DNA from: Candidatus Uhrbacteria bacterium
GTDB lineage: Bacteria > Patescibacteriota > Patescibacteriia > UBA9934
Direction of reading: 5' to 3'
DNA length: 64,000 bases
Assembly: GCA_903848275.1 (NCBI GenBank)
Contig: CAINGB010000001.1
Location: forward strand, 1,175-65,174
Position numbers and translations under genes: made by a program. Every line of letters starts with the position of its first letter. Position 1 is the stretch's first letter. The notes under the pieces are model-generated. The model ran no database searches. It was not told the DNA's origin and worked only from the letters and a program-made list of their open reading frames with translations. This document shows, in pieces, positions 31,154 to 54,336 of the stretch.

Positions 31154-31238
31154 AGAGCCGGTTTGGTGTTTATGACCGCTTTCCTAGTGGAAAGTGATCG
31201 GGTTCCGGGAGACCGGAGTCCCATCAAACCAGTTGCTG

Positions 31239-33279: not shown

Positions 33280-33368
33280 TGTTTTTTTGAGAGAATATAG
33301 TTGTTACTAAAAATTCATAAGCTTCTCGAGGGACTTGATAACCGAGCTACCATCTAAATAAATAGCGT

Positions 33369-34931: not shown

Positions 34932-34935
34932 TCAT

Positions 34936-36156
34936 ATGAGTAAGATTGATCAATTGATTAGTGAATTATGCCCAGAGGGAGTGGAGTTTAAAACGATAGG
35001 AGAATTTGTTGAATTTGCAAAAGGAGCAAGTATTCCTCGAGCCAGAACCTCGGTTGATTATGAAGTTCCGTACCTACATTACGGCGATGTCTACAAGTTG
35101 TATAAAAAAGAGGTCGATCTTGATGTTGTTTATAATTCAATCATTAAGGTCTCATCACATGAGAGAGTTCGCGAAAATCAATATATTCAGACGGGAGATA
35201 TCGTTTATAACCTAACCTCAGAAACGAAAGAGGATTTGGGTAAGGCTATCGTGGTTATCAATAATAGCGGACGGAAATTTATTGCAGGAACCGAAACAAC
35301 TGTAATGAAAATTACACGGAAGGATCTTGTCGATCCATGTTTTTTGAACTATGTGTTGATGACGGAGTGGTATTTGCAGGAGTTCAGACAACATACAACT
35401 GGCACCAAAGTCTACCGTGTTCATCCCCGTGCCATTGCAAAAATCTCGATCCCTCTTCCGCCACTTGTGATTCAAAGAGAGATCGTTAACATTCTTGATA
35501 GGTTCACAGAGCTGGAGACAGAGCTGGAGACAGAGCTGGAGACAGAGCTGGAGACAAGAATGATGCAATACGACTACTATCGTTCAGAGGTTCTGACATC
35601 ATCTGATTCAGAGAGAGCGATATCTGACGTCTGTGGGATTAGTAGAGGAAGAGTGATGTCGAGGGATTATCTCAGAGCGAACGTGGGCGAATATCCGGTT
35701 TATTCTTCGCAAACTGCCAACGATGGAATTTTCGGATACATCGATACTTACGATTACGAAGGTGAATACGTAACCTGGACAACAGACGGAGCGAACGCAG
35801 GATCAATTTTTTACCGCAATGGAAAATTTAGTATCACGAATGTCTGCGGGCTCTTAAAAGTTACCGCTGATGATGTTAATGCAAAATTTCTCACGTATAT
35901 CCTCGGTACTGTTTCAAAAAAATATGTTAGTGCGGGCATGGGAAACCCGAAGCTGATGAGCAACGTTATGGCTAATATCAAGGTGCGAATTCCCACCTTG
36001 ATCGAACAAGAGCGTATCGTAACCTTACTCGACAAATTCGATACCCTAGTGAACGATATCTCCATTGGTCTCCCAGCTGAACTCGCGGCACGTCGAAAAC
36101 AGTATGAGTACTATCGGAGCAAGCTCCTGACTTTCAAAGAATATGCCAAAAGCTAA
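34936..36156 (+). CDS. hsdS: type I R-M specificity subunit HsdS (two target-recognition domains, repeat-bearing central region)
   Basis: Position in hsdM-S-R; overlapping stop/start; conserved central and C-terminal helices; (ELET)4 repeat. Confidence 0.8.
   Translation: MSKIDQLISELCPEGVEFKTIGEFVEFAKGASIPRARTSVDYEVPYLHYGDVYKLYKKEVDLDVVYNSIIKVSSHERVRENQYIQTGDIVYNLTSETKEDLGKAIVVINNSGRKFIAGTETTVMKITRKDLVDPCFLNYVLMTEWYLQEFRQHTTGTKVYRVHPRAIAKISIPLPPLVIQREIVNILDRFTELETELETELETELETRMMQYDYYRSEVLTSSDSERAISDVCGISRGRVMSRDYLRANVGEYPVYSSQTANDGIFGYIDTYDYEGEYVTWTTDGANAGSIFYRNGKFSITNVCGLLKVTADDVNAKFLTYILGTVSKKYVSAGMGNPKLMSNVMANIKVRIPTLIEQERIVTLLDKFDTLVNDISIGLPAELAARRKQYEYYRSKLLTFKEYAKS
35509..35556 (+). 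repeat. 4 x 12-bp perfect tandem repeat GAGCTGGAGACA inside hsdS, encoding (ELET)4
   Basis: Seen directly. Confidence 0.95.
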
Positions 36157-39100: not shown

Positions 39101-39196
39101 CCAACGGGCGAGCGCACGAAAAAGCGCGAGAGCGTCTTGGGGAAACTAACACATTTCTTTGAGAGATTCTTCGACATTTCCGGAGGTGACCTTTAA
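36143..39196 (+). CDS. hsdR: type I restriction enzyme endonuclease/translocase subunit HsdR
   Basis: N-terminal nuclease region, SF2 helicase motifs TGSGKTLTS and FDECHRSQ; 1017 aa. Confidence 0.9.
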   Translation: MPKAKKYNLVAESAQSTVVAEYTPDDKRASYYQSEADLERALIKQLEAQAYEYVAITSEADLVVNLRKQLENLNDFAFTDSEWDQFFAGEIANPNQSIEEKTATIQEDHIRTLTRDDGSVKNIYLLKKDNVHNNSVQVINQYATDEGRRSNRYDVTVLVNGLPMVHIELKRRGVAIQEAFNQINRYQRESFWAAAGLFEYVQLFVISNGTHTKYYSNTTRSQHVKDSVDGAVKKGKRTSNSFEFTSWWADATNRPITDLMDFAKTFFAKHALLNILTRYCVFTSDHLLLVMRPYQIVATERILSRIEISTNYKKLGTVEAGGYIWHTTGSGKTLTSFKTAQLASKLPHIDKVIFVVDRKDLDYQTMLEYDKFEKGAANSNTSTAILGRQLENSNSRIIVTTIQKLDRFIGRNFNHSIFDGHVVIIFDECHRSQFGDMHTAITKAFKNYHLFGFTGTPIFAANASSGSHPDLKTTEQAFGEKLHTYTIVDAIADKNVLPFKVDYVSTVREAENIEDKKVSDIDREAILAAPERLSNIVGYIREHFDQKTKRNSFYQLKDRRLAGFNSIFAVSSIEMAKKYYAEFKKQLAGIPSDKHLKIATIFSFGVNDEDADGMIDENSEDTSGLDVSSRDFLENAIVDYNAMFGTSYDTSADKFQNYYKDVSLRVKNREIDVLIVVNMFLTGFDATTLNTLWVDKNLRLHGLLQAYSRTNRILNSVKTFGNIVCFRNLEKATNEAIALFGDKEASGIVLLKAYADYYHGYKNEGKEVRGYESLVNELMERFPVGERILGEQDQKDFIKLYGAILRVRNILTTFDEFAGHEILTERDVQDYHSAYIDIYNEFRKNVKDEKENVNDDVVFEMELIKQVEINIDHVLNLIKQYHEDHTKNRELLVDINKAIDSSVELRNKKDLLNQFITSLDVHSVVDSDWREFVDKKKLEELEEIIAHENLDHDATFTFVRNAFRDGNIVGNGTAIAKVLPPVSRFSPTGERTKKRESVLGKLTHFFERFFDISGGDL

Positions 39197-40548
39197 TCGA
39201 CTCTCGTAATATTTAAAATGCGATCCCGAATAGTGATCGCATTTTGTAGATCCTCGAGAACTTCACGTTTTTCATCACGAGTGCCGTGGGTCAAAATGTG
39301 TTTGGCAAACTTTCGGATGCTGATTTCTTTTTCCTTTGGCTTGGCTATTTTTTCTCCAAGCACCTCTTCCGCGAAAGCCTTATAGCGATCCAGTTCACTT
39401 TCAATCCGCTTCTTAGCTCCGATCTGACCGATATCTATCTCATCAATTATTTTTAAGAGTTGATCAAGGACATCTTTTTCTCGCATTGGTTGTTCCGTAC
39501 ATTCTCGTCCACTTGATTTACCACATCGGTAGTAAACATACCGATGAACATTCCCGTTACCCTTATTTCGTTTGATCTTCTCTTCAGCCGTAATGCCCGA
39601 TCCACAAGCACCGCATTTAAACATCTTCGTGAACTGAAATTCCTTTTCTCCATAGATTGGCCTATCCGGCACGGAAAGCTGATTCTGTACTCGATCAAAC
39701 AGCTCTTGAGTGATCAACGGCTCATGTGCGCCTTTGTACCATTTGCCGCTACCGGCTGGAGCTTCGAATGATCCGTAATAAAATGGGTTCTTCAATATTT
39801 TATACACGCTGCTCAGCGTTACATTTTTCCCCGTACGAGTCTTGAAATTGATCTCTTTGAGGTAGGTGAAGATTGCTCGCCCCGTCGCTTGCTGATGCCC
39901 CACCATTTCGAATACTTTTTTGATGACCGGCGCACGTTCTTCGTCGATGAATATCCTATTTTGCCCTCGATTGATTGAACGCTCATTAAGGTAGCCGAGC
40001 GGAGGCAAGCCAGGTCGCCAACCCATCTCTACTTTATTCTTCAAGCCGCGTTTGACGTTGATCCCTCTGTTATCGTTTTCCAGTTTTGCCTGACTGCCAA
40101 GGATCATGAGTAGGAACTTTTCATTTGGTGAATTAGTGAACTTCTGTGAATGCGTGCGGATGCCGTGGAGCCTCCCTTTATCCATAAGATCGACGAGCAT
40201 GCCAAGGTCGCCAGCATTACGGCTCAATCGATCTGGTGCCCAAGTGAGGATCGCATTGAACATTCCTTGGTCAATATCCGTCATGAGTCGGTTAAACTCT
40301 GGTCGTTCTCCGGATGCTTTTGCTGAATGACTCTCCCGTCGAATCTCGGTAACGTTCATGCCTTCACGGACTGCCAGTTCTTGCATCTCGTGAATCTGTG
40401 AGTCGATGGACAATGCTTGACGTTCGTCGTCTTCTGAACTTTTTCTCGCATATAGGCAATAACGGAGGTCAACGATGACCTCGCCTTTACCAACGTTATT
40501 TGCTCTGTTTTCTGCCAGCAGTGTTGGACTCGAAAGTTGTTGATTCAT
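39193..40548 (-). CDS. large serine recombinase (resolvase-type catalytic domain + recombinase domain + zinc ribbon)
   Basis: Catalytic-Ser N-terminus RYCLYARKSSEDDERQALSIDSQ; zinc ribbon CGACGSG...YYRCGK; 451 aa. Confidence 0.85.
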   Translation of the reverse strand: MNQQLSSPTLLAENRANNVGKGEVIVDLRYCLYARKSSEDDERQALSIDSQIHEMQELAVREGMNVTEIRRESHSAKASGERPEFNRLMTDIDQGMFNAILTWAPDRLSRNAGDLGMLVDLMDKGRLHGIRTHSQKFTNSPNEKFLLMILGSQAKLENDNRGINVKRGLKNKVEMGWRPGLPPLGYLNERSINRGQNRIFIDEERAPVIKKVFEMVGHQQATGRAIFTYLKEINFKTRTGKNVTLSSVYKILKNPFYYGSFEAPAGSGKWYKGAHEPLITQELFDRVQNQLSVPDRPIYGEKEFQFTKMFKCGACGSGITAEEKIKRNKGNGNVHRYVYYRCGKSSGRECTEQPMREKDVLDQLLKIIDEIDIGQIGAKKRIESELDRYKAFAEEVLGEKIAKPKEKEISIRKFAKHILTHGTRDEKREVLEDLQNAITIRDRILNITRVD

Positions 40549-41485: not shown

Positions 41486-43648
41486 ATGAACATCACTGCT
41501 AGACCCTGTCGGATGCGCGACGTGATCGCCAGCGACAGTTACTACTCAATTCCAGATTACCAACGCCCTTACGAATGGACGGCGGAAAATGTGGAAGACT
41601 TTTGGACGGATTTGACGAAGGCCTTTGAGCACAAAGAAGACGGATACTTTTTAGATAAGCTCATCCTGGTCAATCGCGGAGACGGCAAGGACTTCGAGGT
41701 GGTCGACGGACGACAGCGTCTGACGACGACCATGATTCTCCTCGCGGTACTCCGTGATTTTTTCTTTGAGCATGATTTGCCGGAACGTGCCGACGAGATT
41801 CAGAACACCTGCATCAAGCGTGGAAAGTATCGGCTGCAAGTTCGACCAGAAGAGCGTGCCTCATTCGAGGATCGTATCCTGAAGTCCGTCGGCATTTTGA
41901 AAGACGTCGCCAAGAGCAACCTGCCAGAAACATTCAAGATGGCCGTCACGCTTCTCAATCAATTCATTGAGGAAAAATCCGAAGAGCTAAAATCGAAAAA
42001 TGCCGAAATCGACATCGTTATTTATCTCGACGAGTTCTACCATTTCCTTCTCGACGAAGTAGTGTTGATTGTGATGACGACGGACTCGGTTTCTTCAGCC
42101 TTTACCATCTTCGAAGCGATCAACACTCGCGGCAAGGACTTGGAGACAAAAGACCTTTTGAAGAACCTGCTTATTCGCCGCATTGAGGAAGAAGTGACGC
42201 GCCACAATGCCGAATATCCGACGGCGCAGAAGTCTTTCGACGACGAGAAGCGACGCTTCTTGGACACATGGCTGGAGATCGGAAAAGTAAAAGTTCCGAC
42301 CGACGAATTATTGCGCCATCATCGTATTGCCGTCGTCGGCGACCGTTCACGCAAAGATTTGTTCCGCGAGATTTCCGAAGACATCAAGGACGCCAACGCA
42401 ACCACCGAGGCGTTCATGGATAACTGGAAGCGTTCGGTCGATGCGTTCGTCGAGCTCAAGGCCGGTACGTGGCATGGCGAGGCACTGAACGGATCGGCGC
42501 AAAAGGCACTGCTCCTTCTTTGGAACATCGGTCATGGTTATTGGATTCCAGTACTCATTTCCGCCTGGCGTGATGGCATCGACCGTGAAAAAGCTCAGAC
42601 GTTGATCGAAGGGCTTGAACGCTTTTGTGGCCTTTCGTTCGTGGCTGGCCACACCTCGCGCGGCGTCCTTTCAACGCTCCTCGCATCCGTGCGCGACCTC
42701 AACAACAAACAGTCTGTGGAGAACGTTCTCGCCCGCATCGAAGCATTTCTTCGCAAGAACCGCGTCTTCCGCGATGCGACCGAGAACCTACGGAGCGATG
42801 TGTATCACGCGAGCTGGGGGAAATATGCCTTGGCCAAGTATGAGTACACGCTTTTGGATGATTCCATCATTCGCGAGATTCCGTTTTCGCGAACGGTTCA
42901 GCTGGAGCACATCCTGCCGCAGACGATGACCGATCCCGCATGGACGGCGTTGTTTACCGAAACCGAGCATGACGAGCTGGTGAACACGCTCGGTAACGTA
43001 ACACTTCTTGCCGGAAGCATGAGCGAGGGGCGAAAGTCCAAAAACCAATCTGCTTCGAACAAGCCGTTCGCCGACAAGGTAAAAATCTATCGTGGTGAGA
43101 CGAACAAGGACGGGCTAACCGCCTTCCGAATGACGCAAGAAGTCGCGGAGTACGAATCCTGGACACCAAACGTCATTCGCGAGCGAACGGAGATCGTTCT
43201 TTCAACACTTGTTGGCGCATGGGACGTCACCGCCGAGGATATGGACAGCCAACCCGAGATCGTCACGTCTGATTCTGTCAGGCCAGTTGATACAGAAATT
43301 CTTACGAGCGACGATATCCGCTTCCGTCTTGAAGAAACGCTTGGACGCGAGAGTGATCTTACTCCACGCCTCATCGTTTTCCTCAAGGTTCTTCTCTCCG
43401 AAGGTCGTAGCTTTACCCAAGAGGAGCTTCGCGCTAATCTGTACGACAATGGAATCGGCACTGACCTCGGCCAGGCGGGGCGATATTTGAGCAATATTTC
43501 TCAATTCGTCACCAACGTGAACAACGCCCATCTTCGAGCCATCATTGCCTACGACCTCGAACACGATCGCCCAGGCGCACGAAAGGATAACTACCGGATC
43601 CGCAACGAATATCGAGACCTCGTTCGTGACGCGCTCGCCAAACTTTAA
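41486..43648 (+). CDS. GmrSD-type type IV restriction enzyme (DUF262 ParB-like NTPase + DUF1524 His-Me finger nuclease)
   Basis: DUF262 motifs IPDYQRPYEW, DGRQRLTT; DUF1524 motifs EHILPQ...LGNVTLLAGSMSEG. Confidence 0.75.
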   Translation: MNITARPCRMRDVIASDSYYSIPDYQRPYEWTAENVEDFWTDLTKAFEHKEDGYFLDKLILVNRGDGKDFEVVDGRQRLTTTMILLAVLRDFFFEHDLPERADEIQNTCIKRGKYRLQVRPEERASFEDRILKSVGILKDVAKSNLPETFKMAVTLLNQFIEEKSEELKSKNAEIDIVIYLDEFYHFLLDEVVLIVMTTDSVSSAFTIFEAINTRGKDLETKDLLKNLLIRRIEEEVTRHNAEYPTAQKSFDDEKRRFLDTWLEIGKVKVPTDELLRHHRIAVVGDRSRKDLFREISEDIKDANATTEAFMDNWKRSVDAFVELKAGTWHGEALNGSAQKALLLLWNIGHGYWIPVLISAWRDGIDREKAQTLIEGLERFCGLSFVAGHTSRGVLSTLLASVRDLNNKQSVENVLARIEAFLRKNRVFRDATENLRSDVYHASWGKYALAKYEYTLLDDSIIREIPFSRTVQLEHILPQTMTDPAWTALFTETEHDELVNTLGNVTLLAGSMSEGRKSKNQSASNKPFADKVKIYRGETNKDGLTAFRMTQEVAEYESWTPNVIRERTEIVLSTLVGAWDVTAEDMDSQPEIVTSDSVRPVDTEILTSDDIRFRLEETLGRESDLTPRLIVFLKVLLSEGRSFTQEELRANLYDNGIGTDLGQAGRYLSNISQFVTNVNNAHLRAIIAYDLEHDRPGARKDNYRIRNEYRDLVRDALAKL

Positions 43649-43657
43649 CCTTCTTCT

Positions 43658-45130
43658 ATGCTTTCCAAGTCGAACTTCATGCAATTCCTTCGTTGCTCTT
43701 GCGAGCTATGGCTCACGAAGCAGCGACCGGATCTCGTACCTCCAACGGATCCCGCGCTTCAGCGCATCTTCGACGAGGGGAACATTGTCGACAAATGGGC
43801 GCAGAAGCTCTTCCCAGGCGGCGTGGACGTTGATGGATTCGGAAAGCCTGCCGCTGAGAACACGAGGAAGGCGATCGCGAACGGTGCGACCGTCCTGCTT
43901 CAGCCGACATTTATGACTGCGAAGCTTTCTTGCCGTGGCGACATCCTGACGAAAAATGCCGACGGATCGTGGGATATTTACGAGGTGAAGAGTTCGACGG
44001 ACGTGAAGGAGGAACATATTACCGACGTCGCTTTCCAGCGTATCTGCATCGAGGAAGCTGGCATTCGCATTTCGCGCACGTTCCTCGTTCACATCAACAA
44101 CCAATACGTTCGTAATGGCGAGATTGACCCCGAGCAACTATTCACCAAAGTCGACATCACGCGCGAAGTCGAGAATGTGATGCCGATGGCAAAGAAAGAA
44201 ATTCCCCGCGCCCTTGCTGTCCTCGATTGGGACAAGGTACCAGGACTCCTACACGTCATGTCCTGCAACGATCCTGCCGAGTGTGAATTCCTTTCTTGTT
44301 ATTTCAACCAGTTCAGAAGTGCCGACATTTATTCCATCGCCTCGTCTCTTCCGAAAGAGAAGCTTGTCGCGTTCCTTGAACGAGGTTTTATCACACCAGA
44401 ACAGGTTCCAGTTGATCTCATGGCCGAGCTTGGGGACATCAAGCTACCGGACGCAAAGGCTGAACCAACGCTCTTCGTAGACAAGGACACTATCAAATCC
44501 GAACTCGACGGACTCGTGTACCCGCTCTACTTTTTGGATTACGAAACGCAGCACTCCGCGGTGCCGGCGTTCGATGGTTACCGACCGTACCAGCAGATGG
44601 TTTTTCAGTATTCCGTTCACGTCGTGCGTGAACCTGGAGCCGAGCCGGAACACTACGAATTCCTCGCCGATGAACCAAAAGACCCCGCATCGATGGTTGC
44701 GGAGTCTCTCAAGAAGCACATTGGCGACACTGGAAGCATTATCGTGTGGAACGCTCGGTTCGAAGCATCCCGCAATGCGGAGATCGGCGAGCACCTGCCC
44801 GAGTTTGCAGACTTCATGGCGAACATCAACAACCGTATTTACGATCTGATGATGATCGTAAAGAAGGGCTACTACGTCGACTCACGTTTCGGTGGAAGCG
44901 CGTCGATCAAGAAGGTATTACCAGTCATGTGTCCCGAGCTTTCGTATAACGATCTCGCCATCCACGAGGGTGGCACGGCATCCGCGAGCTGGGCTACGCT
45001 CACGAACGCCGCGATTCCCGTCGAAGATCGAGAACAATTGCGCAAGGAAATGTTGGCGTATTGTTCGCTTGATACCTTCGCGATGCTGGCAATCCATCGA
45101 AAGTTTCTGGAGGTCGTTCGACCGTCTTAG
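43658..45130 (+). CDS. DUF2779-type two-nuclease protein (N-terminal PD-(D/E)XK Cas4-like + C-terminal DnaQ-like exonuclease)
   Basis: N-term MLSKSNFMQFLRCSCELWL; D...EVK motif; C-term LDYETQ and LDTFAMLAIH. Confidence 0.5.
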   Translation: MLSKSNFMQFLRCSCELWLTKQRPDLVPPTDPALQRIFDEGNIVDKWAQKLFPGGVDVDGFGKPAAENTRKAIANGATVLLQPTFMTAKLSCRGDILTKNADGSWDIYEVKSSTDVKEEHITDVAFQRICIEEAGIRISRTFLVHINNQYVRNGEIDPEQLFTKVDITREVENVMPMAKKEIPRALAVLDWDKVPGLLHVMSCNDPAECEFLSCYFNQFRSADIYSIASSLPKEKLVAFLERGFITPEQVPVDLMAELGDIKLPDAKAEPTLFVDKDTIKSELDGLVYPLYFLDYETQHSAVPAFDGYRPYQQMVFQYSVHVVREPGAEPEHYEFLADEPKDPASMVAESLKKHIGDTGSIIVWNARFEASRNAEIGEHLPEFADFMANINNRIYDLMMIVKKGYYVDSRFGGSASIKKVLPVMCPELSYNDLAIHEGGTASASWATLTNAAIPVEDREQLRKEMLAYCSLDTFAMLAIHRKFLEVVRPS

Positions 45131-46749
45131 CGGTCGTAGAGATTGCTCTCGGGAATACCCATCTTCCGACGATTTTCGATCCGCGCCTCTTCTGCCCTAT
45201 CAATCTCCTCAGCCAACTTCCGTTCGTCTTCCATTTCTTTTTCAAACTTTTCTTCATCGATCTCAATGAGATCAATACGCCTCATGTTGCCGACACCCAT
45301 ACCGATGTGGCTCGAGCGTGTTTTCTCGATCAGATAGTTCATGCCGAGAGAGAAGGCGTCACAAAGATCGTCGTGTTCGCCGGGTCCGAAGTTCACGAGC
45401 TGTTCGATGAGCTTCTCAGCGCCAACGCGAGGAAATACTACTTCCCCCTGGACGACATACGATGCTGGAATCTCAAGACGTTCACGCTTATTCATGCCGT
45501 GAAGTGCCACCATTCGTGCACGACATCCCTCTTGTCTCAATTCAGCGGCGACACGTTCCTGAAAACTTACGTCCTCAATGAGCACCTCTGCGTCACGGAT
45601 TTCCTTGAGCGCGTCCCTCTTTGTGATGATCGTGCTTACCGACTCGCTGACCTTCATATGTTTGTTGACGACGCCGGGCAATACGTAAAACTTGCGGTTC
45701 CTGCCACCACCATATACAGCGATCGTCACAAGTGCTGCATAGTCGGCAGTAGACTTATCTGAGACGGCAAGATCAGTGCCAATGACCAGATGACGGCATG
45801 TGAGGTCTTTCGGCAGCGCGTCATAGTACTGAAACTCCTCGCGCCGCAAGAGCTGAGTTTCATCGTCGACAATGCGGAGCATGAACTCGCGTTGCCAAGC
45901 GGATTCATTTGGAACGCTGCGGTGGAACTGCTCAACGGTTGCCTTGTCTATAAAACGCTCTGGCCAGGTAGGGTCACCGTTATCGTCGACGATCGGGACG
46001 CGAACGAACGTTCCATCAATGCGCTTTTCCTCGATGGCATTGCGGAGACGCTGTAGGATGCAGTCGGCATTCACCAAATTTCCAACATAGACGAACTGTG
46101 TGCGCTGATCTCCGCATGGAATGACCTCGCTCGTATACCAATCATAATTCGCATCGCGTGCGTCCTGCCCCCGTGTTGAGTCGATGTTTTCAACGTCGTC
46201 GCAGATTACCAAGTCTGGGCGATTCTGAAGGTGACGCAAACCACGGATGCCTTGCTCGCGCGAGAGGGCAATAATCTTTGCCCCGTACTGCTTGATAACA
46301 ATGGCACCCGCGTTCCATTCCTCATCCTGTTCTTCAAACGGTCCCAAATCTGATAAAAGCAATGGATTAGTGGACAGCTCCTCCTTGATGTTGGTCAGGT
46401 ATTGGCGCGCCTGTTTCTGAGTTTGGCCAATGATGAGAATGCACTTTTTCTGTGGCATCCCTACCACCGACCAGATCGGAAGCGAAAGGGATAAGATGGT
46501 CGACTTCCCCGACCCACGGAACGCAAGGGCTACCAAGAACTTCTGTTTGATGTTTTCAGTTTGTGCGAAGAGATACTGATGGAAGGCAGCGAATGGGCTG
46601 GTAAAGTAGTGGCCGAAGTACACACGCGCAAACATCTCGTGACTATTCTTTACCACCGTCGTTCGGACTGATTGGTTCGTCTGCATGAGCTGGATCATCT
46701 GATCCAACGCTATCGGATTCTGATTCGGGTCTGGCTGTTGTTTCGGCAT
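45127..46749 (-). CDS. phage terminase large subunit (probable true start near 46635)
   Basis: Walker A LAFRGSGKST, Walker B LVICDDVENID, C-terminal RNase-H-like nuclease region. Confidence 0.75.
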   Translation of the reverse strand: MPKQQPDPNQNPIALDQMIQLMQTNQSVRTTVVKNSHEMFARVYFGHYFTSPFAAFHQYLFAQTENIKQKFLVALAFRGSGKSTILSLSLPIWSVVGMPQKKCILIIGQTQKQARQYLTNIKEELSTNPLLLSDLGPFEEQDEEWNAGAIVIKQYGAKIIALSREQGIRGLRHLQNRPDLVICDDVENIDSTRGQDARDANYDWYTSEVIPCGDQRTQFVYVGNLVNADCILQRLRNAIEEKRIDGTFVRVPIVDDNGDPTWPERFIDKATVEQFHRSVPNESAWQREFMLRIVDDETQLLRREEFQYYDALPKDLTCRHLVIGTDLAVSDKSTADYAALVTIAVYGGGRNRKFYVLPGVVNKHMKVSESVSTIITKRDALKEIRDAEVLIEDVSFQERVAAELRQEGCRARMVALHGMNKRERLEIPASYVVQGEVVFPRVGAEKLIEQLVNFGPGEHDDLCDAFSLGMNYLIEKTRSSHIGMGVGNMRRIDLIEIDEEKFEKEMEDERKLAEEIDRAEEARIENRRKMGIPESNLYDR

Positions 46750-47191
46750 AGGAAATTGGAGATTGAATAAGAGTAGCCTTGTGAGTGGCGAGCATCTGCA
46801 TAAAGTCAGTGGTTAATGCTGTCGCCTCAGGTGACATTTCTGGCGGCTTAACGGTGACCGCGGCATCGATACGCAGTTTGTCCGCGTAGGCCTTGTGTCG
46901 GTTGCGAAGCCAGAACGCGATGGCCGGATAGTTTTGATCCTTGATAAGCGTGATGAGCTGGCTCTCGGCCATGTCGTTGATGAACGCCGTGCCTTCGCGA
47001 ATCGCTTCTTCTGTTTCCGATGCGAATGTCACATCCTCGTCTACCCATCGGTAGTAGGTCGCCCGTGCCACGCCGTTTTTCTCACATGCAACTTGGATGA
47101 TAGGAATTTTCCGGAGCTGATCGACGATGAGCTTCTTTTGTTCTTGTTGACGTTGGTCGATCAATTTACTGTCGCGTTTATTCTTGGGCAT
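46643..47191 (-). CDS. phage terminase small subunit (HTH DNA-binding)
   Basis: HTH ACEKNGVARATYYRWV; directly upstream of and overlapping terL. Confidence 0.6.
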   Translation of the reverse strand: MPKNKRDSKLIDQRQQEQKKLIVDQLRKIPIIQVACEKNGVARATYYRWVDEDVTFASETEEAIREGTAFINDMAESQLITLIKDQNYPAIAFWLRNRHKAYADKLRIDAAVTVKPPEMSPEATALTTDFMQMLATHKATLIQSPISYAETTARPESESDSVGSDDPAHADEPISPNDGGKE

Positions 47192-47972
47192 ACGTTGCGA
47201 TCTTAACGGCCTTGATGCCGGTTTTCTTTTCGAACCTGTCGATCACCGTCATGATGTACTCGGGATCGATCTCGACTCCATAGCATCGACGTTTCGTATC
47301 TTCTGCCGCTATCAAAGTTGACCCACTACCGAGATACCCATCGAATATAACGTCCCCGATGGTGGAACTATTCAAGATGATTCTGCGGAGCAATCCGACA
47401 GGTTTCATCGAGGGATGAAGGCCGCTCTTGCTCGGCTTTGGATAGAATAAAATCGATTTGTCCTTACTCTTCATGAACTTGTGCGTGCCGAGCCAGCCGT
47501 ACGCAAGAAGCTCGTGTTGCGGTAAATAGTCCAATCGACCGACCACCGCGTGGTTCTTGATCCAGATGATCAATTGGGCGAACTTGTATCCCTCCTCAAG
47601 CATCGCGTCGCGTAACGCGAAGATCATCTTGTCTGCATTGAAAATGTAGCAGGAGTTCTTCTTGGCAAAGTACGGCACGAGCGCCCCGAGCCACGCCTTG
47701 CTGAACGCCTTGTACTCGGCATCGGTCTGAATGTGGTCATTGATAATGTCACGGTCGTTGCCGAGCTTCTGCTTGAAACCGCGTTTCGATGCGGTTGCAT
47801 CTACAGAATACGGGGGATCACAGAGCAGCAGGCCGATCTTCTCAGTGCCGATTAACTTCTTGAGGAGCCCGACGTCAGACGAACTGCCACACGCGATGCG
47901 GTGCACTCCCAACTGGTAAATTTCCCCTGGCTTAACGGATGAGTTTCGGCTTGATGCCGGTGAGTTTTTCAT
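47178..47972 (-). CDS. DNA methyltransferase (N6A/N4C amino-MTase, beta class)
   Basis: DPPY motif IV (LLLCDPPYS) then motif I FDGYLGSGST. Confidence 0.8.
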   Translation of the reverse strand: MKNSPASSRNSSVKPGEIYQLGVHRIACGSSSDVGLLKKLIGTEKIGLLLCDPPYSVDATASKRGFKQKLGNDRDIINDHIQTDAEYKAFSKAWLGALVPYFAKKNSCYIFNADKMIFALRDAMLEEGYKFAQLIIWIKNHAVVGRLDYLPQHELLAYGWLGTHKFMKSKDKSILFYPKPSKSGLHPSMKPVGLLRRIILNSSTIGDVIFDGYLGSGSTLIAAEDTKRRCYGVEIDPEYIMTVIDRFEKKTGIKAVKIATYAQE

Positions 47973-49317
47973 AACGATTTAAGATTACTTGGCAAAAGAT
48001 TGGTTCTTGCTCACAGAGGAATGCACGCCTACGCAGTTGATCAGCACTAATGAGGAAACTTCCACTACCACCAAAGAGATCGAGTACTGCATCATTGATC
48101 TTGGTACATCGGCGCAACGCCTTCTCATGTAATGTTGGATTTTTAGAAGTTGGGTGTTCATACTCCTGCGCCGGAAGACGCTTCACCAACCAAATCTGCA
48201 GTTGATCCATCACGTCATCGATCAGACGATTGCCTGTGCCGATCTCCTTGTTCATGATTTCATTCAGGTTCGTAATCGTTGGAGCAAGAAATGGCTTACC
48301 ACGGGTGGCATATGTTGCCATCTCGATACATTTGTTGAAGGCAACTCCAGCGGTTGGTGTTGCATTATCTTTGACCCAAATGCATACACGTCGGTTTGTG
48401 AGGCCGAGATCCGTGAAGAGACTCTGGATGACACCGACCATGCATTCGTCCGACCAGTAAAAGACATGGCAGTCTGGCTTCGCCACAGCGAGCGCATTTT
48501 CCATCGTCTTCTTGAGGAACGCCCGATACTCCTCCGGCTTCCACGAATCGTTGGTCATGAGCCCGCCGTACTTGCCAGGCTTGCAACTCACGCCGCGGTC
48601 ATAGGAAAGGCCGATGTCGAAAGGAGGGTCACAATCGATCATGGAGATCGTCTCTTTGCCAACGAGCCGCTGGACGTTTTCAAGCTTGGTTGAATCGCCG
48701 CAAAGGAGCTTGTGTGCTCCAAGCGCATACAGGTCGCCAGTCTTCACCGTTGTCGTCTTCACTTCCTCGACCGCCTGTTCGAGGTCGAAGCCGTCGTCTT
48801 CCGTCGCGAGCGAGTCGCCCCAGAGCGCCGTGAGATCCGTGTCGTCGAAACCGACGTCGAGGAGCATGTCGATGTCGAATGCCTTCAACAAGTCCATATC
48901 GAACGAGCCGGAATTTTTGTTGAGGCGTAAATTAAGTTCGCGTTCACGTTTGATGTCCGTGATGTGAAGGAAGACGACAGGAACTTCCGTGATGCCAAGA
49001 TCCTTGGCGCACTGGAGACGGAAGTGACCTCCTACGAGCACTCCTTCGCGTCCCTTTGCGGAGTTCGCGATGAGCGGGTCGACGAACCCGAAGCGGCGGA
49101 TGCTCTCGCGGAGCTTTTCTGCCGCCGCGTCGTCCCAAACGCGAGGATTGTACTCGCTTGCGCGTAACGTATCTGTGGGAACCATGACGATCTTCAGATC
49201 GTTTGCGGCCTTCTTTGGCCGCACTAAACTAGCCTTTGCCATATGGTGAAAGGTGAGATGAATAAGTTTGCGTAACTTTTTATCGAAGGACTCGGTACCG
49301 TTGCCCTGATCGACCAC
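47932..49317 (-). CDS. ParB-like nuclease domain–DNA methyltransferase fusion (phage type)
   Basis: N-terminal ParB/Srx-like domain; MTase motifs CDPPFD and LDLFGGSGSFLI. Confidence 0.8.
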   Translation of the reverse strand: MVDQGNGTESFDKKLRKLIHLTFHHMAKASLVRPKKAANDLKIVMVPTDTLRASEYNPRVWDDAAAEKLRESIRRFGFVDPLIANSAKGREGVLVGGHFRLQCAKDLGITEVPVVFLHITDIKRERELNLRLNKNSGSFDMDLLKAFDIDMLLDVGFDDTDLTALWGDSLATEDDGFDLEQAVEEVKTTTVKTGDLYALGAHKLLCGDSTKLENVQRLVGKETISMIDCDPPFDIGLSYDRGVSCKPGKYGGLMTNDSWKPEEYRAFLKKTMENALAVAKPDCHVFYWSDECMVGVIQSLFTDLGLTNRRVCIWVKDNATPTAGVAFNKCIEMATYATRGKPFLAPTITNLNEIMNKEIGTGNRLIDDVMDQLQIWLVKRLPAQEYEHPTSKNPTLHEKALRRCTKINDAVLDLFGGSGSFLISADQLRRRAFLCEQEPIFCQVILNRYEKLTGIKPKLIR

Positions 49318-49548: not shown

Positions 49549-49568
49549 AATGCCTTAATCAAGGCATT
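49549..49568. promoter_or_regulatory. candidate operator palindrome AATGCCTT-aatc-AAGGCATT in the divergent control region
   Basis: Perfect 8-bp arms with 4-bp spacer; nearby direct repeats (ACAAAGTA x2, 49595..49611) and palindrome GAGACG-aaaa-CGTCTC (49724..49739). Confidence 0.35.
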
Positions 49569-49754
49569 AAATCGCTAAGGTTAGCAAAAAGTAGACAAAG
49601 TATACAAAGTAGAAAAAGTCGCCTTCGCCGTGTCGCCAAAGATAGCCAAGAAATCGTATTTTACTATATAGCGTATATTTCTTTACAGCTTTCAATAAGC
49701 ATGCTAGGGTGGTGAAAAGAGTGAGACGAAAACGTCTCATGTGGATAACTTTCT

Positions 49755-50420
49755 ATGCATCATTTCCAGGAAATTCTCATCGAGATGGCGCGGTACCACA
49801 AGCTTGACGGCCGCAGTTACCGTCAAATTGCTTGGGAAATACACGCGGAGCACGGTAGTCAGGTGAAGTATCACCTCGACCGCCTTCTTAAGGACGGCAT
49901 TGTGATCGAAAAGAAGGACGGAACCTTCGTTGTCGCCGAGGACGCAAAGCGAAAGCCCTTACCTAAGGCAGTGGCCTTCAAACGTATTCCGCTTCTCGGT
50001 GCGGCGAACTGCGGTGACGCCACTATGATCGCAGAAGATCGCGTCGAGCAGTTCCTTCCAGTTTCGAGTAGCATCATCGAGCGAGACGCTGGTAAGTGGT
50101 TCGCTCTCCGTGCCGTCGGAAATTCCATGAACGAGGCGAGAGTCGGCGGCCTGACAATCGAAGACGGTGACTATGTCTTGGTAGACACCAGCGACAAGCA
50201 GCCAAAGGACAAAGACATCGTCGTTTCAATCATCGACGGCCTCGCCAACATTAAGATGTTTTACAATGACCAAGCGAACAAACAAATCACCCTCATCTCT
50301 CGCTCAACCGAGGAGCATCCGCCGATTCTCATTCACAAGAAGGACGCGGGTATCTACCTCATCGCAGGTAAGGTGAAGCACGTAATCAAGAAGCCGAAGA
50401 TGAGCTGGTCACACTCGTAG
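49755..50420 (+). CDS. LexA-like repressor (winged HTH + S24 autopeptidase domain)
   Basis: S24 catalytic Ser in AVGNSM, Lys in ANIKMF; LexA-type wHTH N-terminus; 2-nt gap to the next gene. Confidence 0.8.
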   Translation: MHHFQEILIEMARYHKLDGRSYRQIAWEIHAEHGSQVKYHLDRLLKDGIVIEKKDGTFVVAEDAKRKPLPKAVAFKRIPLLGAANCGDATMIAEDRVEQFLPVSSSIIERDAGKWFALRAVGNSMNEARVGGLTIEDGDYVLVDTSDKQPKDKDIVVSIIDGLANIKMFYNDQANKQITLISRSTEEHPPILIHKKDAGIYLIAGKVKHVIKKPKMSWSHS

Positions 50421-50422
50421 CT

Positions 50423-51568
50423 ATGGAACAAACTAAGAAAAAATCTAGCCGCGGCAAATCAAGAAGCTACTCCAAGCCGATTGAACGCGCACTCTACGCA
50501 TTTGCAGCCGGACGTTGCGAGTTCAAAGGATGCAACAAGCCCCTGCTTGTTCATCACCTCTCGTTGAACGCGGGCAACTTTGCCGAGAAGGCACACATCC
50601 GCCCCTTTAGTCCGGATGGTCCACGAGGTACGGGATCATCAAAAGATCGGTCTGACATTAATGGCGTAAGCAATTTGATGTTGCTCTGCGGTGGTTGCCA
50701 CGAGGAAATCGATGGCCGCCCCGACGAATATCCGATTGACCTGCTCAAGAAACATAAGAAGGAGCATGAGGATCGTGTGTCGATGGTAACCAGCCTCGGG
50801 TCTGAGTGCCGAACAAAAGTCATCGTGCTCAAAGCGAATATCGCTGGCCAGCCGACGTCAGCCTCGGACGAAGATGTCTACAGGGCACTGTTTCCTAACC
50901 GTTGGGCAACAAAGAAGCCCGTGGATGTCATCGACCTAACGGGTGTACTCGACCGTGCAAATGGTTACAGCACTTTTTCAGAAACTATCGCCGATCATGT
51001 GCGTGGGTTTTATAGCGAAATACCGGATCACGTCTCGGTGTTTGCTATTGGACCAATGCCCCTGCTCATGGATCTTGGCTCCCGGCTCAGCAATAAGATT
51101 CCTACCGATTTCTTCCAACTTCATCGAGATACGAAAAGTTGGGAATGGAAAAAGGAGGGTGGCGCTACGCGCTATGTCACCAGTAAGGCTCGTCAGGGTA
51201 CCGACCCCGCAAAAGTAGCTCTTGTTGTTTCACTCAGCGGGACAATAGATATCGCTGCACTTTCGCTCGACGACAAGTACAGCGTCTATCTACTAACGTT
51301 AGACGGCGCCATACCGAACCCGGGGTTTCTGCAAACGCAGAAAGACCATGATGGATTCCGGGAGGAATACAGACGGTGCATCGCTCAAATCGCATCCGAG
51401 AATCCTACCGTTAAAGAAATCCACTTCTTTCCCGCAATGCCGGCTCCAATCGCTGTAACGTGCGGCTATGATCTTCTCCCGAAGGCGCATCCCGCGCTCA
51501 TCATTCATGACTACGACAAGGCTCTCGGAGGCTTTCGCGAGGTTCATAAAATTAATTTTTCCGTATGA
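50423..51568 (+). CDS. HNH endonuclease–SAVED domain effector (Cap5-like)
   Basis: HNH CEFKGCNKPL...H...NLMLLCGGCHEEID; C-terminal duplicated CARF-like halves (FAIGPMPLLMDLGSRL, FFPAMPAPIAVTCGYDL). Confidence 0.65.
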   Translation: MEQTKKKSSRGKSRSYSKPIERALYAFAAGRCEFKGCNKPLLVHHLSLNAGNFAEKAHIRPFSPDGPRGTGSSKDRSDINGVSNLMLLCGGCHEEIDGRPDEYPIDLLKKHKKEHEDRVSMVTSLGSECRTKVIVLKANIAGQPTSASDEDVYRALFPNRWATKKPVDVIDLTGVLDRANGYSTFSETIADHVRGFYSEIPDHVSVFAIGPMPLLMDLGSRLSNKIPTDFFQLHRDTKSWEWKKEGGATRYVTSKARQGTDPAKVALVVSLSGTIDIAALSLDDKYSVYLLTLDGAIPNPGFLQTQKDHDGFREEYRRCIAQIASENPTVKEIHFFPAMPAPIAVTCGYDLLPKAHPALIIHDYDKALGGFREVHKINFSV

Positions 51569-52452
51569 CGTCACATGCTTATCTTTTGAAAGTCCTCGAA
51601 TCTCAACGTATTGTTCCGGGCAGCGCAGAACTGAATGCATTAACAACGGCACAAAAAGAGGTTGAGGAAATCATTCGCGCGTCGTTTAAAGACTCGAACC
51701 CTGTCATTTGTCCTGGCGGATCACTCGCGAAAGGCACCATGATAAAGGAATCCTACGACCTCGACATCATTTGTTATTTCCCCAAATCGGATGATGAACC
51801 CGGCGATACGCTCAAGGAAATTTACGAAAGCGTCGCTACAGCTCTGTCGGATAAGTATACGGTTCGTCGCAAGCGTTCAGCACTCCGTTTGTTCGATAAG
51901 GACACCGACACAAACGACTTCCATATTGATGTCGTACCGGGTCGTTACGTGGACGGAACGCAGGGAGACTGCTTCATTCATCAGCACGAAGGCGACAAGG
52001 TATATCTCAAGACGAACCTGCAGAAACACATCACCCACATCCGTAATAGTGGTGTCACAGACGCCATTTCGTTATTGAAGTTATGGAAAGTCCGCAATAG
52101 CATCCCTGTGAAGACCTTTGTTCTGGAGCTTCTGGTAGTTGAGGCATTGAAGGATCACAAAAACGACACGTTAAACGGACAACTCGAGCACGTGTTTTCT
52201 TTGTTGAGAGACCAGGAAATCGCTACCGTCACAGATCCGGCGAATGCGTCGAATGATCTATCGGACAGGTTTGATTCGAGCATGCGCTCTCGGCTGGCCA
52301 CAGAGGCAAAGAAAACACTAGAGGCTATTAATAACAAGGGATGGGAATCGGTTTATGGTGCCGTGTCGTCAGATGATGGCGCGAAGAAGATCGGTATCTT
52401 GTCGCGAGCAGCAAAGTCAGATGAAAGCTTTACTCGCCCTTGGCACTCATAA
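51565..52452 (+). CDS. cGAS/DncV-like nucleotidyltransferase (CD-NTase / SMODS)
   Basis: Pol-beta-type motifs GGSLAKGTMIKESYDLDII and DFHIDVVPG; ATGA overlap with upstream gene. Confidence 0.65.
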   Translation: MTSHAYLLKVLESQRIVPGSAELNALTTAQKEVEEIIRASFKDSNPVICPGGSLAKGTMIKESYDLDIICYFPKSDDEPGDTLKEIYESVATALSDKYTVRRKRSALRLFDKDTDTNDFHIDVVPGRYVDGTQGDCFIHQHEGDKVYLKTNLQKHITHIRNSGVTDAISLLKLWKVRNSIPVKTFVLELLVVEALKDHKNDTLNGQLEHVFSLLRDQEIATVTDPANASNDLSDRFDSSMRSRLATEAKKTLEAINNKGWESVYGAVSSDDGAKKIGILSRAAKSDESFTRPWHS

Positions 52453-53216
52453 ACATGATAAGCCTGGGCGAAGTACAAAACGAGGTCTCATTAACGCAGC
52501 CGTATCTGGCAATCTCGGAAGAACCCGACGGTTTTGTTATGCGCGGCATTTTTTTGATAGCCATCGATGGCGAATTAGCTGACGAATATCGCGTGGAAAT
52601 TATTGTCTCGAGAGAATTTCCTGAGAACATGCCAGTCATTCGAGAGATTGGCGGTCGAATTTTTCGGTCTGCCGCTCATCATGTCGAAGACAGTGGTATC
52701 GCATGTTTGTTGACGCCAGAGGAATATCACTGGAAGTGGAAAACGAAAGAGAATTTTTCCTTGGCTATGTACCTTGATGGCCCAGTTCGTCATTTCTTTA
52801 TCGGTCAATCTCTCGTTGAGCTTGGACAACCCTGGCCTGCGGGAGAACGTGGCCATGGTGTTGGCGGTTTGTTTGAATGGTATAAAGAAGTCCTTGCCAT
52901 TACTGATGATGGCGCCATTATTCGCTCCATTGAAGCACTGCGTCGACATGTTAAGGGGCATCATTCGTGTCCGTGTGGGTCAATGGTTCCTGTCAGACGT
53001 TGTCATTCCTCCATTCTGCGGATTCGGAACGCGATTCCTCCTAACGTCATTCAATCAACGTACGACAACTATATGCGCGAACGAACATCGGCAATCAGCG
53101 CATTTAAAAAGCTACATCTCGCGACACGAAAAAGACAACTTCCATTTTCTCCGCCCATTTACGTCGAGACAGACTATCGACTCTGGCCATCACCACAAGC
53201 AATTTTACAATTCTAG
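52440..53216 (+). CDS. E2-like (UBC-fold) protein, putative CBASS Cap2-type ancillary
   Basis: UBC-like core: beta strands then AAHHVEDSGIACLLTPEEY (HPN-like motif + Cys); C-terminal CPCGS...C cluster. Confidence 0.45.
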   Translation: MALINMISLGEVQNEVSLTQPYLAISEEPDGFVMRGIFLIAIDGELADEYRVEIIVSREFPENMPVIREIGGRIFRSAAHHVEDSGIACLLTPEEYHWKWKTKENFSLAMYLDGPVRHFFIGQSLVELGQPWPAGERGHGVGGLFEWYKEVLAITDDGAIIRSIEALRRHVKGHHSCPCGSMVPVRRCHSSILRIRNAIPPNVIQSTYDNYMRERTSAISAFKKLHLATRKRQLPFSPPIYVETDYRLWPSPQAILQF

Positions 53217-53708
53217 ATTCTCCTCCTTCAAAAATACGAAGTACCAGTGATGTTCACCATTACGAATCTCACGCGCTTTTAGCTCACCATTTCGCACCTT
53301 CTTTCCGATCGTCATGCGATGCCAACCGAATCTTTCCGTTAGCTCTTCTGACGAATACCAACTCTTACGGTCGGTGCACACGGAGCCGGGAATCACTCCA
53401 CTCTCGACCGCCCGTTGGCAAGGCATACACTTTACGTTGTATTGGTCGTACCAGCCTTGATCGCCACTGATCGTCTGGTGGCAAATCGCACAGTTGTATG
53501 TCTCATTTGATGGAAGTGCGAAGCCATTCGGCTCACCGACGAGCCGCTGCCTACATCGTTCGTAATGCTCCTCAATCCGCCCGAATGTCAGCATCAACTT
53601 GATCAAGTTTTCCGAGTATTCCAAGGCCTGATTATCGGTTAAATCCTCACCATACTCCTTCTTCCAAAACTCCTTACATAGGCGGATCTGTTCGTCTTTT
53701 GTGCGCAT
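53205..53708 (-). CDS. Cys-rich zinc-ribbon + excisionase-type HTH (HTH_17/AlpA-like) protein
   Basis: CAICHQ...CMPCQ; C-terminal WYSSEELTERFGWHRMTIGKKVRNGELKAREI. Confidence 0.4.
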   Translation of the reverse strand: MRTKDEQIRLCKEFWKKEYGEDLTDNQALEYSENLIKLMLTFGRIEEHYERCRQRLVGEPNGFALPSNETYNCAICHQTISGDQGWYDQYNVKCMPCQRAVESGVIPGSVCTDRKSWYSSEELTERFGWHRMTIGKKVRNGELKAREIRNGEHHWYFVFLKEENLEL

Positions 53709-53870
53709 AGAAATATGCTTAAAACTCCCTTGAAATCATCGTATTCCTATTTTGAGACACAGGCCATTCTCGTGTCTCATTTGTCTCATTTCGCATGACC
53801 GGAGTCCCTGTGGCCTGGTCGCCCTAATCTTCGTAAACCCCCTTGAATACCGAGTTCAGTACCGGAGTGT

Positions 53871-53904
53871 CCTGCCACGTCGGTCGCGACCGACGTGGCC
53901 TGCC
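53871..53904. repeat. GC-rich perfect palindrome element (copy 2 of 2)
   Basis: 34-nt identity with 7951..7983. Confidence 0.8.
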
Positions 53905-54069
53905 ACTAACGTATCAGATCGCACCGAGCGGTCTGCCACGCTACGTATCAGGTTCCCTAAATGGCGCCTATCACGTTCCTGTAGCAAGCCACGTCCAAGT
54001 CGTACCAAAGTGACAACACACAAGCGCCATCAGGCGTTTTTGTGTTTTATGGGTTATACTATCGACAGT

Positions 54070-54336
54070 ATGTGGTATTTCTATATTCTCCAAAGCCTCA
54101 CCAAACCAGACTATTTCTACAAAGGCTCCACGAGTAATTTAGAAAAACGCCTAGCCGAACATAATCTCGGTAAAACTATCTCTAATAAACCATACCTCCC
54201 ACTTCATATCGTCTACTACGAAGCCTACACAACCGAAAAAGCCGCCGGACTACGCGAATCTGCAGTAAAACAAAGTGGCTCAATTTCAGTACCATTATTA
54301 AGACGCATTAAGGAAAGTTTAAAAACAGGCAATTAA
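54070..54336 (+). CDS. GIY-YIG nuclease-domain small protein (second copy in window)
   Basis: MWYFYILQSLTKPDYFYKGSTSNLEKRLAEHN; start chosen at internal Met of ORF 53752..54336. Confidence 0.7.
   Translation: MWYFYILQSLTKPDYFYKGSTSNLEKRLAEHNLGKTISNKPYLPLHIVYYEAYTTEKAAGLRESAVKQSGSISVPLLRRIKESLKTGN

Follow-up and report, generated by a model that had tools for sequence, protein, structure and literature searches.

Why does a LexA-like repressor stand at the head of an antiphage operon, and what does it control? The question is raised by a 64,000-nt stretch of the Candidatus Uhrbacteria bacterium contig CAINGB010000001.1 (hereafter the window, to which all coordinates refer unless a locus is named), where the gene for a self-cleaving repressor of the S24 type directly precedes the three genes of a CBASS, an antiphage signaling system based on cyclic oligonucleotides (Table 1). 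The analysis suggests that this repressor is not specific to the CBASS and is probably a generic, DNA damage-responsive switch for defense cargo. The whole reading, namely, an S24-headed, autorepressed defense-cargo operon of a mobile element that would be de-repressed by self-cleavage of the repressor, is favored here with moderate confidence.

By its sequence, the product of the first gene is an S24 autocleaving repressor of the LexA/UmuD/CI superfamily, with an S24 domain, a Ser/Lys dyad, and a cleavage site in the linker. It matches the Pfam family Peptidase_S24 (PF00717) with an E value of 7e-17, and its C-terminal domain aligns with the solved structures of LexA and UmuD. The Cys86-Gly87 cleavage site, Ser124 (in a GNSM motif), and Lys167 (in ANIK) are invariant in 7 members of the clade; across 28 diverse homologs, Gly87, Ser124, and Lys167 remain invariant, the invariance of Cys86 being a feature of the clade only. 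At the N terminus, the protein has a winged helix of the LexA type and not the HTH_3 domain of the lambda-like CI proteins. Thus, the description given in the initial annotation, a LexA-type winged helix-turn-helix joined to an S24 peptidase with its serine and lysine in these two motifs, is borne out, as is the view that a single repressor of this type heads the operon with its cleavage site and catalytic dyad intact. The strict conservation of site and dyad argues that self-cleavage has been retained.

The resemblance to LexA extends over residues 21 to 213. The score against the NCBIfam lexA model (TIGR00498) is 65.2 bits, below the equivalog cutoff of 110.95, and the protein is therefore treated as LexA-like, or paralogous to LexA, and not as LexA itself. 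Most of its homologs are LexA-like proteins from Patescibacteria, including a 90%-identical copy in a Patescibacteria metagenome-assembled genome (MAG), and its PHROG matches are to phage transcriptional and CI-like repressors. Scans of metagenome, genome, and viral contig collections for the S24 clade added no further contigs. The gene could also be read as the ordinary SOS LexA of the host, or an inert remnant, lying by chance next to an acquired CBASS with no regulatory link to it. Homologs at 40 to 46% identity are indeed widely annotated as LexA in Patescibacteria, and a chromosomal LexA-like homolog, P0035 (44% identical), is found in an ordinary context beside type IV pilus genes, with neither cargo nor backbone. 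However, such a chance neighborhood is very improbable given the 2-nt gap to the Cap5 gene, which leaves no room for a promoter, the recurrence of the tight repressor-then-cargo layout, with varied cargo, in 10 or more independent loci, the score well under the LexA cutoff, and the position of the gene inside a mobile-element backbone and an island of atypical GC skew.

The three genes that follow the repressor make the locus, by gene content, a type II-short (E2-only) CBASS, since an E2 gene is present and no E1 or JAB gene is found within 49.7 to 53.7 kb; phage protection itself is predicted. The Cap5-type effector matches the Pfam domains SAVED (5e-34) and HNH_2 (1e-5), the PADLOC SAVED-HNH effector model PDLC00746 (1e-127), and the solved Cap5-type PDB chains 8ysq (3e-45) and 7rwk (6e-34). 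The CD-NTase scores 31 bits against the Pfam SMODS family, above the cutoff of 26.5, and 1e-71 against the PADLOC cyclase model PDLC00803, and it carries the GGS...DLD and DFHIDV motifs of a Pol-beta-type active site. It has 918 homologs at E<=1e-20, among which those with about 50% identity are common; its sole sequence match in the PDB is SmCdnG (8hsb, 1e-3). The E2 protein has no match in Pfam or NCBIfam and no sequence match in the PDB. It is recognized by the PADLOC E2 model PDLC00861 (8e-49), and its top PADLOC models are of the E2, not the E1-E2, type. A word-based search finds only 7 homologs, in which His76, Gly81, and Cys84 (numbered from the start at 52455) and the C-terminal CPCG...C motif are invariant. 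Its AlphaFold2 (AF2) model, with a predicted local distance difference test (pLDDT) score of 73, consists of a helix, four strands, a loop, and further helices; the nearest folds in Foldseek are UFC1, UEV, and Ubc13, with a probability of 0.99 and an E value of only 3e-3. The domains initially assigned to all four gene products (S24, HNH-SAVED, CD-NTase, and E2) are thus supported by profile matches, including those to SAVED and SMODS, whose absence had been named beforehand as a potential refutation.

In their gene content, type II-short systems such as CdnG-E2 of Serratia marcescens, together with the CdnG-Cap5 systems, are comparable to this locus, as they share a CD-NTase, an E2-only partner, and an HNH-SAVED Cap5. 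However, the window cyclase is only distantly related to SmCdnG, the window E2 adds the CPCG...C motif and a tail of about 40 residues, and the window operon is headed by an S24 gene. The CPCG...(R)C(H) motif (52965-53010, E2 residues ~171-184) resembles the SEC-C zinc motif and is duplicated in the E2 homologs P0244, P0246, and P0247; a separate SEC-C domain protein is encoded between TerL and the recombinase in locus L097 (1288-2055).

The four genes are packed like a single transcription unit, and their cotranscription is predicted. The repressor and Cap5 genes are separated by 2 nt (TAG-CT-ATG), and the CD-NTase and E2 genes by another 2 nt (TAA-AC-ATG) if the E2 gene begins at ATG 52455; with the alternative TTG at 52440, the last two genes overlap by 13 nt. 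The ATG, which the gene caller chose on the identical metagenome contig L001, is the more likely start. Accordingly, the four packed plus-strand genes of the initial annotation are all present, with the 2-nt gap and the ATGA overlap as described; the 13-nt overlap proposed for the final junction holds for the TTG start and gives way to the 2-nt gap with the more likely ATG. The junctions are too short to hold internal promoters. The region has 4 terminator-like matches, against 4.7 expected in shuffled sequence; a weak one falls within the CD-NTase gene. At the DNA level, the segment from 49.3 to 53.8 kb has no similarity to GenBank phages or Escherichia coli genomes.

Placing the effector before the cyclase had been seen as a peculiarity of this operon. 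It is not one: the Cap5-then-CD-NTase order is kept in the related loci L090, L092, and L093 and in a Vibrio plasmid, so that it is typical of this CD-NTase clade. The repressor is another matter. In the nearest CBASS relatives, its position is taken by an HTH_3 protein and a Peptidase_M78 protein of the CapH/CapP type. A repressor-peptidase pair of this kind is present in L093 and L124 and probably in L092, with HTH_3 followed by a 227-aa protein that has no Pfam match; on a Sinorhizobium plasmid, the pair takes the form of ImmA/IrrE and HTH genes. No S24 gene is found in four sampled plasmid Cap5 loci. Conversely, no HTH_3, M78, or WYL gene is present in or beside the window operon, which therefore falls outside the CapH/CapP type. 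A full-text search of the literature, including the CapW, CapH/CapP, and CapK/CapS papers, found no description of an S24- or LexA-type regulator of CBASS. Hence, the claim that an S24 repressor in the place of CapH/CapP is unusual stands.

The CapH/CapP system, which combines an HTH repressor with a single-stranded DNA (ssDNA)-activated metallopeptidase, de-represses CBASS upon DNA damage (bioRxiv 10.1101/2022.04.27.489752), and CapW (a WYL protein) and CapK/CapS likewise de-repress immune operons. In all three, as here, the repressor heads or diverges from an immune operon, and all three, like the S24 gene, are found with several unrelated defense systems. In contrast to these regulators, the window operon has one self-cleaving S24 polypeptide, presumably with RecA-ssDNA as its coprotease, and no M78 peptidase, WYL protein, or kinase. 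De-repression by self-cleavage would parallel that by CapH/CapP, which occupies the same position in the nearest relatives of this CBASS.

Homologs of the repressor are found in front of a wide range of cargo, the closest copies being located in the backbone seen here. The S24 gene is followed by CD-NTase and Cap15 genes in L003 (repressor 72% identical to that of the window); by a CD-NTase of a different clade and Cap5 in L004 (64%); by an AlbA_2 gene in L007 (90%); by AlbA_2 and CD-NTase genes in L095 (43%); and by DUF2188, CD-NTase, and Cap15 genes in L100 (40%). Three loci with the same backbone carry, after the S24 gene, a ThsB-type TIR protein and a 210-aa protein (L097; 43%), two TIR proteins and an 8xMP membrane protein (L023; 32%), and an AAA_15/21 ATPase, a 148-aa protein, and an OLD nuclease (L103; 38%). 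A Type I HsdR gene follows in L028 (25%), and a gene for a PhoD-like protein follows in L099 (44%). The cargo classes thus comprise three unrelated CBASS types, AlbA_2 with CD-NTase, two Thoeris-like TIR cassettes, a PARIS/OLD-like pair, and Type I HsdR. A slot reserved for CBASS, considered on the basis of L003 and L004, was rejected in view of L097, L023, L103, and L028.

The identity of the repressor to its homologs follows that of the ParB-methyltransferase (ParB-MTase) encoded by the neighboring divergent gene, with S24/ParB-MTase pairs of 72/78, 64/64, 62/59, 43/54, 38/46, and 32/43%. The CD-NTases of the S24 loci are unrelated to each other, ranging from no significant similarity to 33% identity; the exception is an 85%-identical cyclase common to L003 and L095, whose repressors are only 45% identical. 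This pattern indicates that the repressor stays with the backbone while the cargo is exchanged. The initial view of the repressor as a part of the CBASS is therefore abandoned, as its identity tracks the backbone and cargo of the Thoeris-like, PARIS/OLD-like, and Type I restriction kinds is also found behind its homologs.

Two other proteins recur in these loci. A DUF2188 protein of 77 to 81 aa is found beside CBASS and/or S24 genes, in varying positions, in otherwise different loci (L003, 10514-10753; L004, 11424-11663; L093, 5555-5788; L099, 6612-6854; L100, 8652-8897). A 392-aa AlbA_2/Schlafen-domain protein without a PADLOC match is encoded after the S24 gene (L007, 1225-2403; L095, 2133-3311) and, in L095, before the CD-NTase gene; it may be an unrecognized CBASS-associated effector or regulator.

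The repressor and ParB-MTase genes diverge from a common control region. Its length, initially given as 436 bp, is correct for the annotated ParB-MTase start and becomes about 510 bp if the protein begins at Met26, as its homologs (434 to 436 aa) do. Alignment of five S24-clade loci reveals in this region a candidate operator, a palindrome present in a single copy at the same position in all five loci, perfect in L003, L004, and L005, and absent from the rest of the window. The right half of the palindrome forms the -35-like TTTACA of a conserved candidate promoter some 80 nt upstream of the repressor gene, the -10 of which reads TAAGCT or TAATAT in the relatives (general form TGn-TAnnnT). The five loci keep the palindrome and promoter at a fixed distance from the repressor gene while their flanks have diverged. 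The more distant S24 genes of L099, L101, and L103 also have palindromes that embed a TTGAC-type -35. This placement over the repressor's own -35 makes de-repression of the operon plausible and, as no second such site is found close to the divergent genes, is consistent with autorepression of the S24-cargo operon in the manner of LexA.

Other elements of the region are less uniform. The tandem 9-bp repeats, which vary in copy number among relatives, are also found (as ACAAAGTnn) in L095, upstream of its 43%-identical S24 gene. The leader hairpin (49722-49739), with fold z scores of -3.1 in the window and -2.2 in L007, was rejected as an operator, as its sequence varies across loci with 62- to 90%-identical repressors and it folds weakly in L003 and L004. 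The 12-mer that follows it, TGTGGATAACTT, is invariant among the loci and unique in the window. On the ParB-MTase leader side, the segment 49243-49600 contains strong hairpins, AATGCCTT-AATC-AAGGCATT at 49550-49569, CATTCGGAAATGGG/CCTATTTCCCAATG, and GGCGGC.../...GCCGCC, with a fold z score of -2.3 and poor conservation among relatives. Rfam has no match in the control region, and its matches in the whole window are confined to tRNAs.

The genes on the other side of the control region are indeed the phage-type cluster that the initial annotation had placed there, ParB-MTase, a second MTase, and the small (TerS) and large (TerL) terminase subunits, and this divergent arrangement suggests a different role for the repressor. 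It might be a CI-type immunity repressor that silences the ParB-MTase-MTase-TerS-TerL operon, and with it induction and packaging, the CBASS being a cotranscribed lysogenic-conversion passenger, as rexAB is with cI. In that case, cleavage would lead to induction of the element, and expression of the CBASS could decrease instead of increasing. The coevolution of the S24 protein with ParB-MTase while the cargo is swapped, the recurrence of the S24/backbone pairing with non-CBASS cargo in L097, L103, and L023, and the PHROG matches to phage repressors all agree with this role. However, the sole operator-like palindrome lies at the S24 promoter, ~350 to 430 nt from the ParB-MTase start, and the N terminus is a LexA-type winged helix and not a lambda-like HTH_3. 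Moreover, among the IMG/VR backbone relatives with more than ~1 kb upstream of ParB-MTase, L023 is the only one to carry a divergent S24 gene in that position; the S24 gene of L028 is found elsewhere, downstream of the recombinase, and the remaining relatives carry other genes upstream of ParB-MTase. An immunity repressor is the main rival account of the locus, less likely than the favored autorepressed cargo operon but compatible with it, as one protein could do both jobs. The lambda cI-rexAB operon and SetR of the SXT integrative and conjugative elements offer the closest general models, with an S24 autocleaving repressor cotranscribed with defense cargo and divergent from the functions of the element. 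In contrast to lambda cI, the repressor here has a LexA-type winged helix, and the element lacks capsid, tail, lysis, and replication modules. The single operator-like site, located on the repressor's own -35, suggests simple autorepression and not a tripartite switch of the OR type.

Table 1. Features of the S24-CBASS operon, its control region, and the element backbone in the window
Feature	Coordinates	Strand	Basis
LexA-like S24 autocleaving repressor, 221 aa; N-terminal winged HTH	49755..50420	+	Pfam PF00717, TIGR00498, residue conservation, structure alignment
Cap5-type effector, HNH nuclease fused to SAVED sensor, 381 aa	50423..51568	+	Pfam, PADLOC, PDB
CD-NTase, 295 aa; ATGA overlap with Cap5 gene	51565..52452	+	SMODS, PADLOC, PDB
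E2-only (UBC-fold) protein, 253 aa; C-terminal CPCG...C zinc-type motif	52455..53216 (alternative TTG start 52440)	+	PADLOC, conservation, AF2/Foldseek
Candidate operator, palindrome GTATA-TTTC-TTTAC (consensus yGTAAA-N4-TTTACr)	49673..49686		Alignment of five S24-clade loci
Candidate S24-CBASS promoter: -35 TTTACA 49682-49687, 17-nt spacer ending TGC, -10 TAGGGT 49705-49710	49682..49710	+	Alignment, inferred
Tandem 9-bp repeats AAAGTAnAC/ACAAAGTnn, 3 copies	49588..49619	+
Leader hairpin TGAGACG-AAAA-CGTCTCA, then TGTGGATAACTT directly before ATG	49722..49751	+
ParB-N + N6/N4 DNA methyltransferase (ParB-MTase), first gene of divergent backbone operon	47932..49317 (true start probably 49242)	-	Pfam; phrog_498 2e-87
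Second DNA methyltransferase	47178..47972	-	N6_N4_Mtase 3e-26
Terminase small subunit-like protein (TerS)	46643..47191	-	HTH_Tnp_1_2 6.5e-6; Sf6_terminase 0.035; phrog_4044 4e-6
Terminase large subunit (TerL)	45127..46749	-	phrog_38 4e-75
Second cargo slot between TerL and recombinase: GmrSD type IV restriction enzyme and DUF2779/Cas4-like protein	41486..45130	+	Pfam
Large serine recombinase (integrase)	39193..40548	-	Resolvase, Recombinase, Zn_ribbon_recom domains; phrog_95 1.5e-66
Conserved 167-aa backbone protein, Zn ribbon and weak HTH_17/excisionase-like C terminus; gene convergent with E2, closes cassette slot	53205..53708	-

The surroundings of the operon appear to belong to a small integrative, satellite-like element, of which the region would be the defense-cargo arm; the element is probably one of Patescibacteria. 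In the ~20 closest IMG/VR loci, the genes follow the order ParB-MTase, (MTase), TerS, TerL, and serine recombinase, with a variable TerL-recombinase gap of 0 to 8 kb that represents the second cargo slot. The TerL protein is a true large terminase of phage type; IMG/VR holds 494 confirmed relatives of it, and more distant relatives are encoded by ordinary phages (L033). The TerS score against HTH_Tnp_1_2, 26.7 bits, is slightly under the Pfam cutoff of 27.9. No capsid, portal, or tail genes are found in the window or in the ~20 related loci, and an intact prophage was rejected, as TerL is not followed by structural genes here or in close relatives. Most backbone relatives have other genes in the position of the S24 gene, which is therefore dispensable for maintenance of the element. 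The 167-aa protein is 60 to 66% identical in L003 and L004, with a Pfam HTH_17 match of only 0.008 and no match in IMG/VR or PHROGs. Its gene directly adjoins ParB-MTase, on the upstream side, in L037 and is found elsewhere in L016 and L031; from the adjacency in L037, it follows that the S24 cassette fills the interval between these two genes. Two TerL-like genes are found in tandem in the backbone relatives L020, L021, and L028. In the 12.4-kb IMG/VR contig L036, the order is TerS-TerL-x-SerRec-...-ParB-MTase, with ParB-MTase and TerS at opposite ends; this order resembles a circularly permuted backbone and hints at an element of ~12 kb in excised form. No description of this backbone was found in the literature.

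From tRNA-Trp (31079-31153) to ~53.8 kb, the GC skew departs from that of both flanks. This region contains, in order, the OLD-family nuclease, the Type I restriction-modification (R-M) system, the recombinase, GmrSD/DUF2779, TerL/TerS/MTase/ParB-MTase, the S24-CBASS operon, and the 167-aa gene. The segment between tRNA-Trp and the recombinase (31312-39196) encodes an OLD-family nuclease (AAA_15 and TOPRIM) and a complete Type I R-M system (HsdM, HsdS, and HsdR), with the HsdR and recombinase genes converging in a 4-nt overlap; the related elements L017, L028, and probably L012 carry Type I R-M as well. The ends of the element are expected between ~39.19 kb (or 31.2 kb) and 53.8 kb; no repeat joins the recombinase edge and the right edge. 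A 12-nt direct repeat, GACCGGAGTCCC, brackets the 22.6-kb region of atypical skew, with copies ~60 nt after tRNA-Trp (31211-31222) and ~90 nt beyond the 167-aa gene (53797-53808); as ~0.08 such matches are expected by chance, it counts only as a candidate marker of where the island ends. A perfect palindrome of 22 nt, CACGTCGGTCGCGACCGACGTG, flanked by conserved CCTGCCA.../...TGGC, is found at 1581-1602, 7956-7977, and 53876-53897 (0 expected by chance; one of the three copies has 2 mismatches). It looks like a repetitive extragenic palindromic (REP)-like repeat of the host genome, suggesting that host DNA resumes by 53.87 kb. The open reading frame at 53752-54336 is probably overextended, as only residues 107-174 match GIY-YIG and its upstream part overlaps the REP-like repeats; the real start of this GIY-YIG gene is likely near 54.05 kb.

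Known satellites provide the nearest parallels. Phage-inducible chromosomal islands (PICIs), PICI-like elements (PLEs), the P4 hotspots, and the marine virion-encapsidated integrative mobile elements (VEIMEs) are likewise small and integrative, with an integrase, a terminase, no structural genes, and defense cargo at fixed slots. In PLEs and VEIMEs, serine recombinases and TerS are found (PMC9618062). In contrast to these satellites, the window element encodes both TerS and TerL and two DNA methyltransferases. The combination of TerS, TerL, and an integrase without capsid genes also bears on the inducing cue. Satellites such as the Staphylococcus aureus pathogenicity islands are de-repressed by helper-phage proteins, and here, too, a helper-phage antirepressor or another protease might act instead of RecA and DNA damage, so that a specific phage protein would induce the cassette. 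Such a cue is improbable in view of the strictly conserved cleavage site and Ser/Lys dyad, and no antirepressor candidate was identified.

The scheme we infer for the autorepressed cargo operon takes in operator binding, damage induction, RecA dependence, the CBASS signaling steps, and a satellite-like lifestyle. A repressor dimer on the palindrome over its own -35 would keep basal expression of the four-gene operon low. DNA damage or phage replication would generate RecA-ssDNA filaments, on which, as the behavior of the family suggests, the Ser124/Lys167 dyad would cleave the Cys86-Gly87 bond and de-repress the operon. Upon sensing phage, the CD-NTase, by homology with the CdnG-Cap5 and E2-CBASS systems, would make a cyclic nucleotide, with the E2 protein modulating the cyclase. 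The signal would bind the SAVED domain of Cap5, and the HNH nuclease would degrade DNA, leading to abortive infection. Characterized Cap5 proteins are activated via 3'2'-cGAMP-induced tetramerization (PMC12804361).

Several points weigh against this scheme. Operator binding, cleavage, and expression are predicted here from sequence. The window palindrome has one mismatch (GTATA), the -10 TAGGGT is weak, and the promoter falls below the threshold of the consensus scanner, which did not call it; the promoter rules applied are sigma-70-like and may not hold for Patescibacteria. Binding at the -35 could in principle also make a repressor an activator, the role of lambda CI at PRM. Control of the element may be the main task of the repressor, given its coevolution with the backbone and its position opposite the packaging operon. 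The active-site loop of E2 is modeled at low confidence (pLDDT <50 for residues 72-91). The S24-led loci number only about a dozen, many on short contigs, and the host assignment is drawn from the MAG names of homologs and not from the window.

Toxic abortive-infection systems require tight transcriptional control, and CapW, CapH/CapP, and CapK/CapS each sense DNA damage by their own route. If the favored reading is true, a LexA-type self-cleaving repressor ties CBASS, Thoeris-like, and other cassettes straight to the classical RecA signal. These regulators would then be convergent solutions to one control problem, with CapH/CapP used in the same position by the nearest relatives of this CBASS. 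More tentatively, and with rather less confidence than is placed in the favored reading, LexA-paralogous S24 repressors may constitute a further single-protein class of damage-responsive immune switches, wired to RecA and, in Patescibacteria, heading a plug-in slot for the exchange of CBASS, Thoeris-like, PARIS/OLD-like, or restriction cassettes in a so far undescribed family of integrative elements with terminases but no capsid genes. The short palindrome and promoter make the favored reading directly testable. Carried by a compact element with two fixed cargo slots, these loci give a first outline of how Patescibacteria, for which few defense systems have been described, carry and exchange their defense genes.

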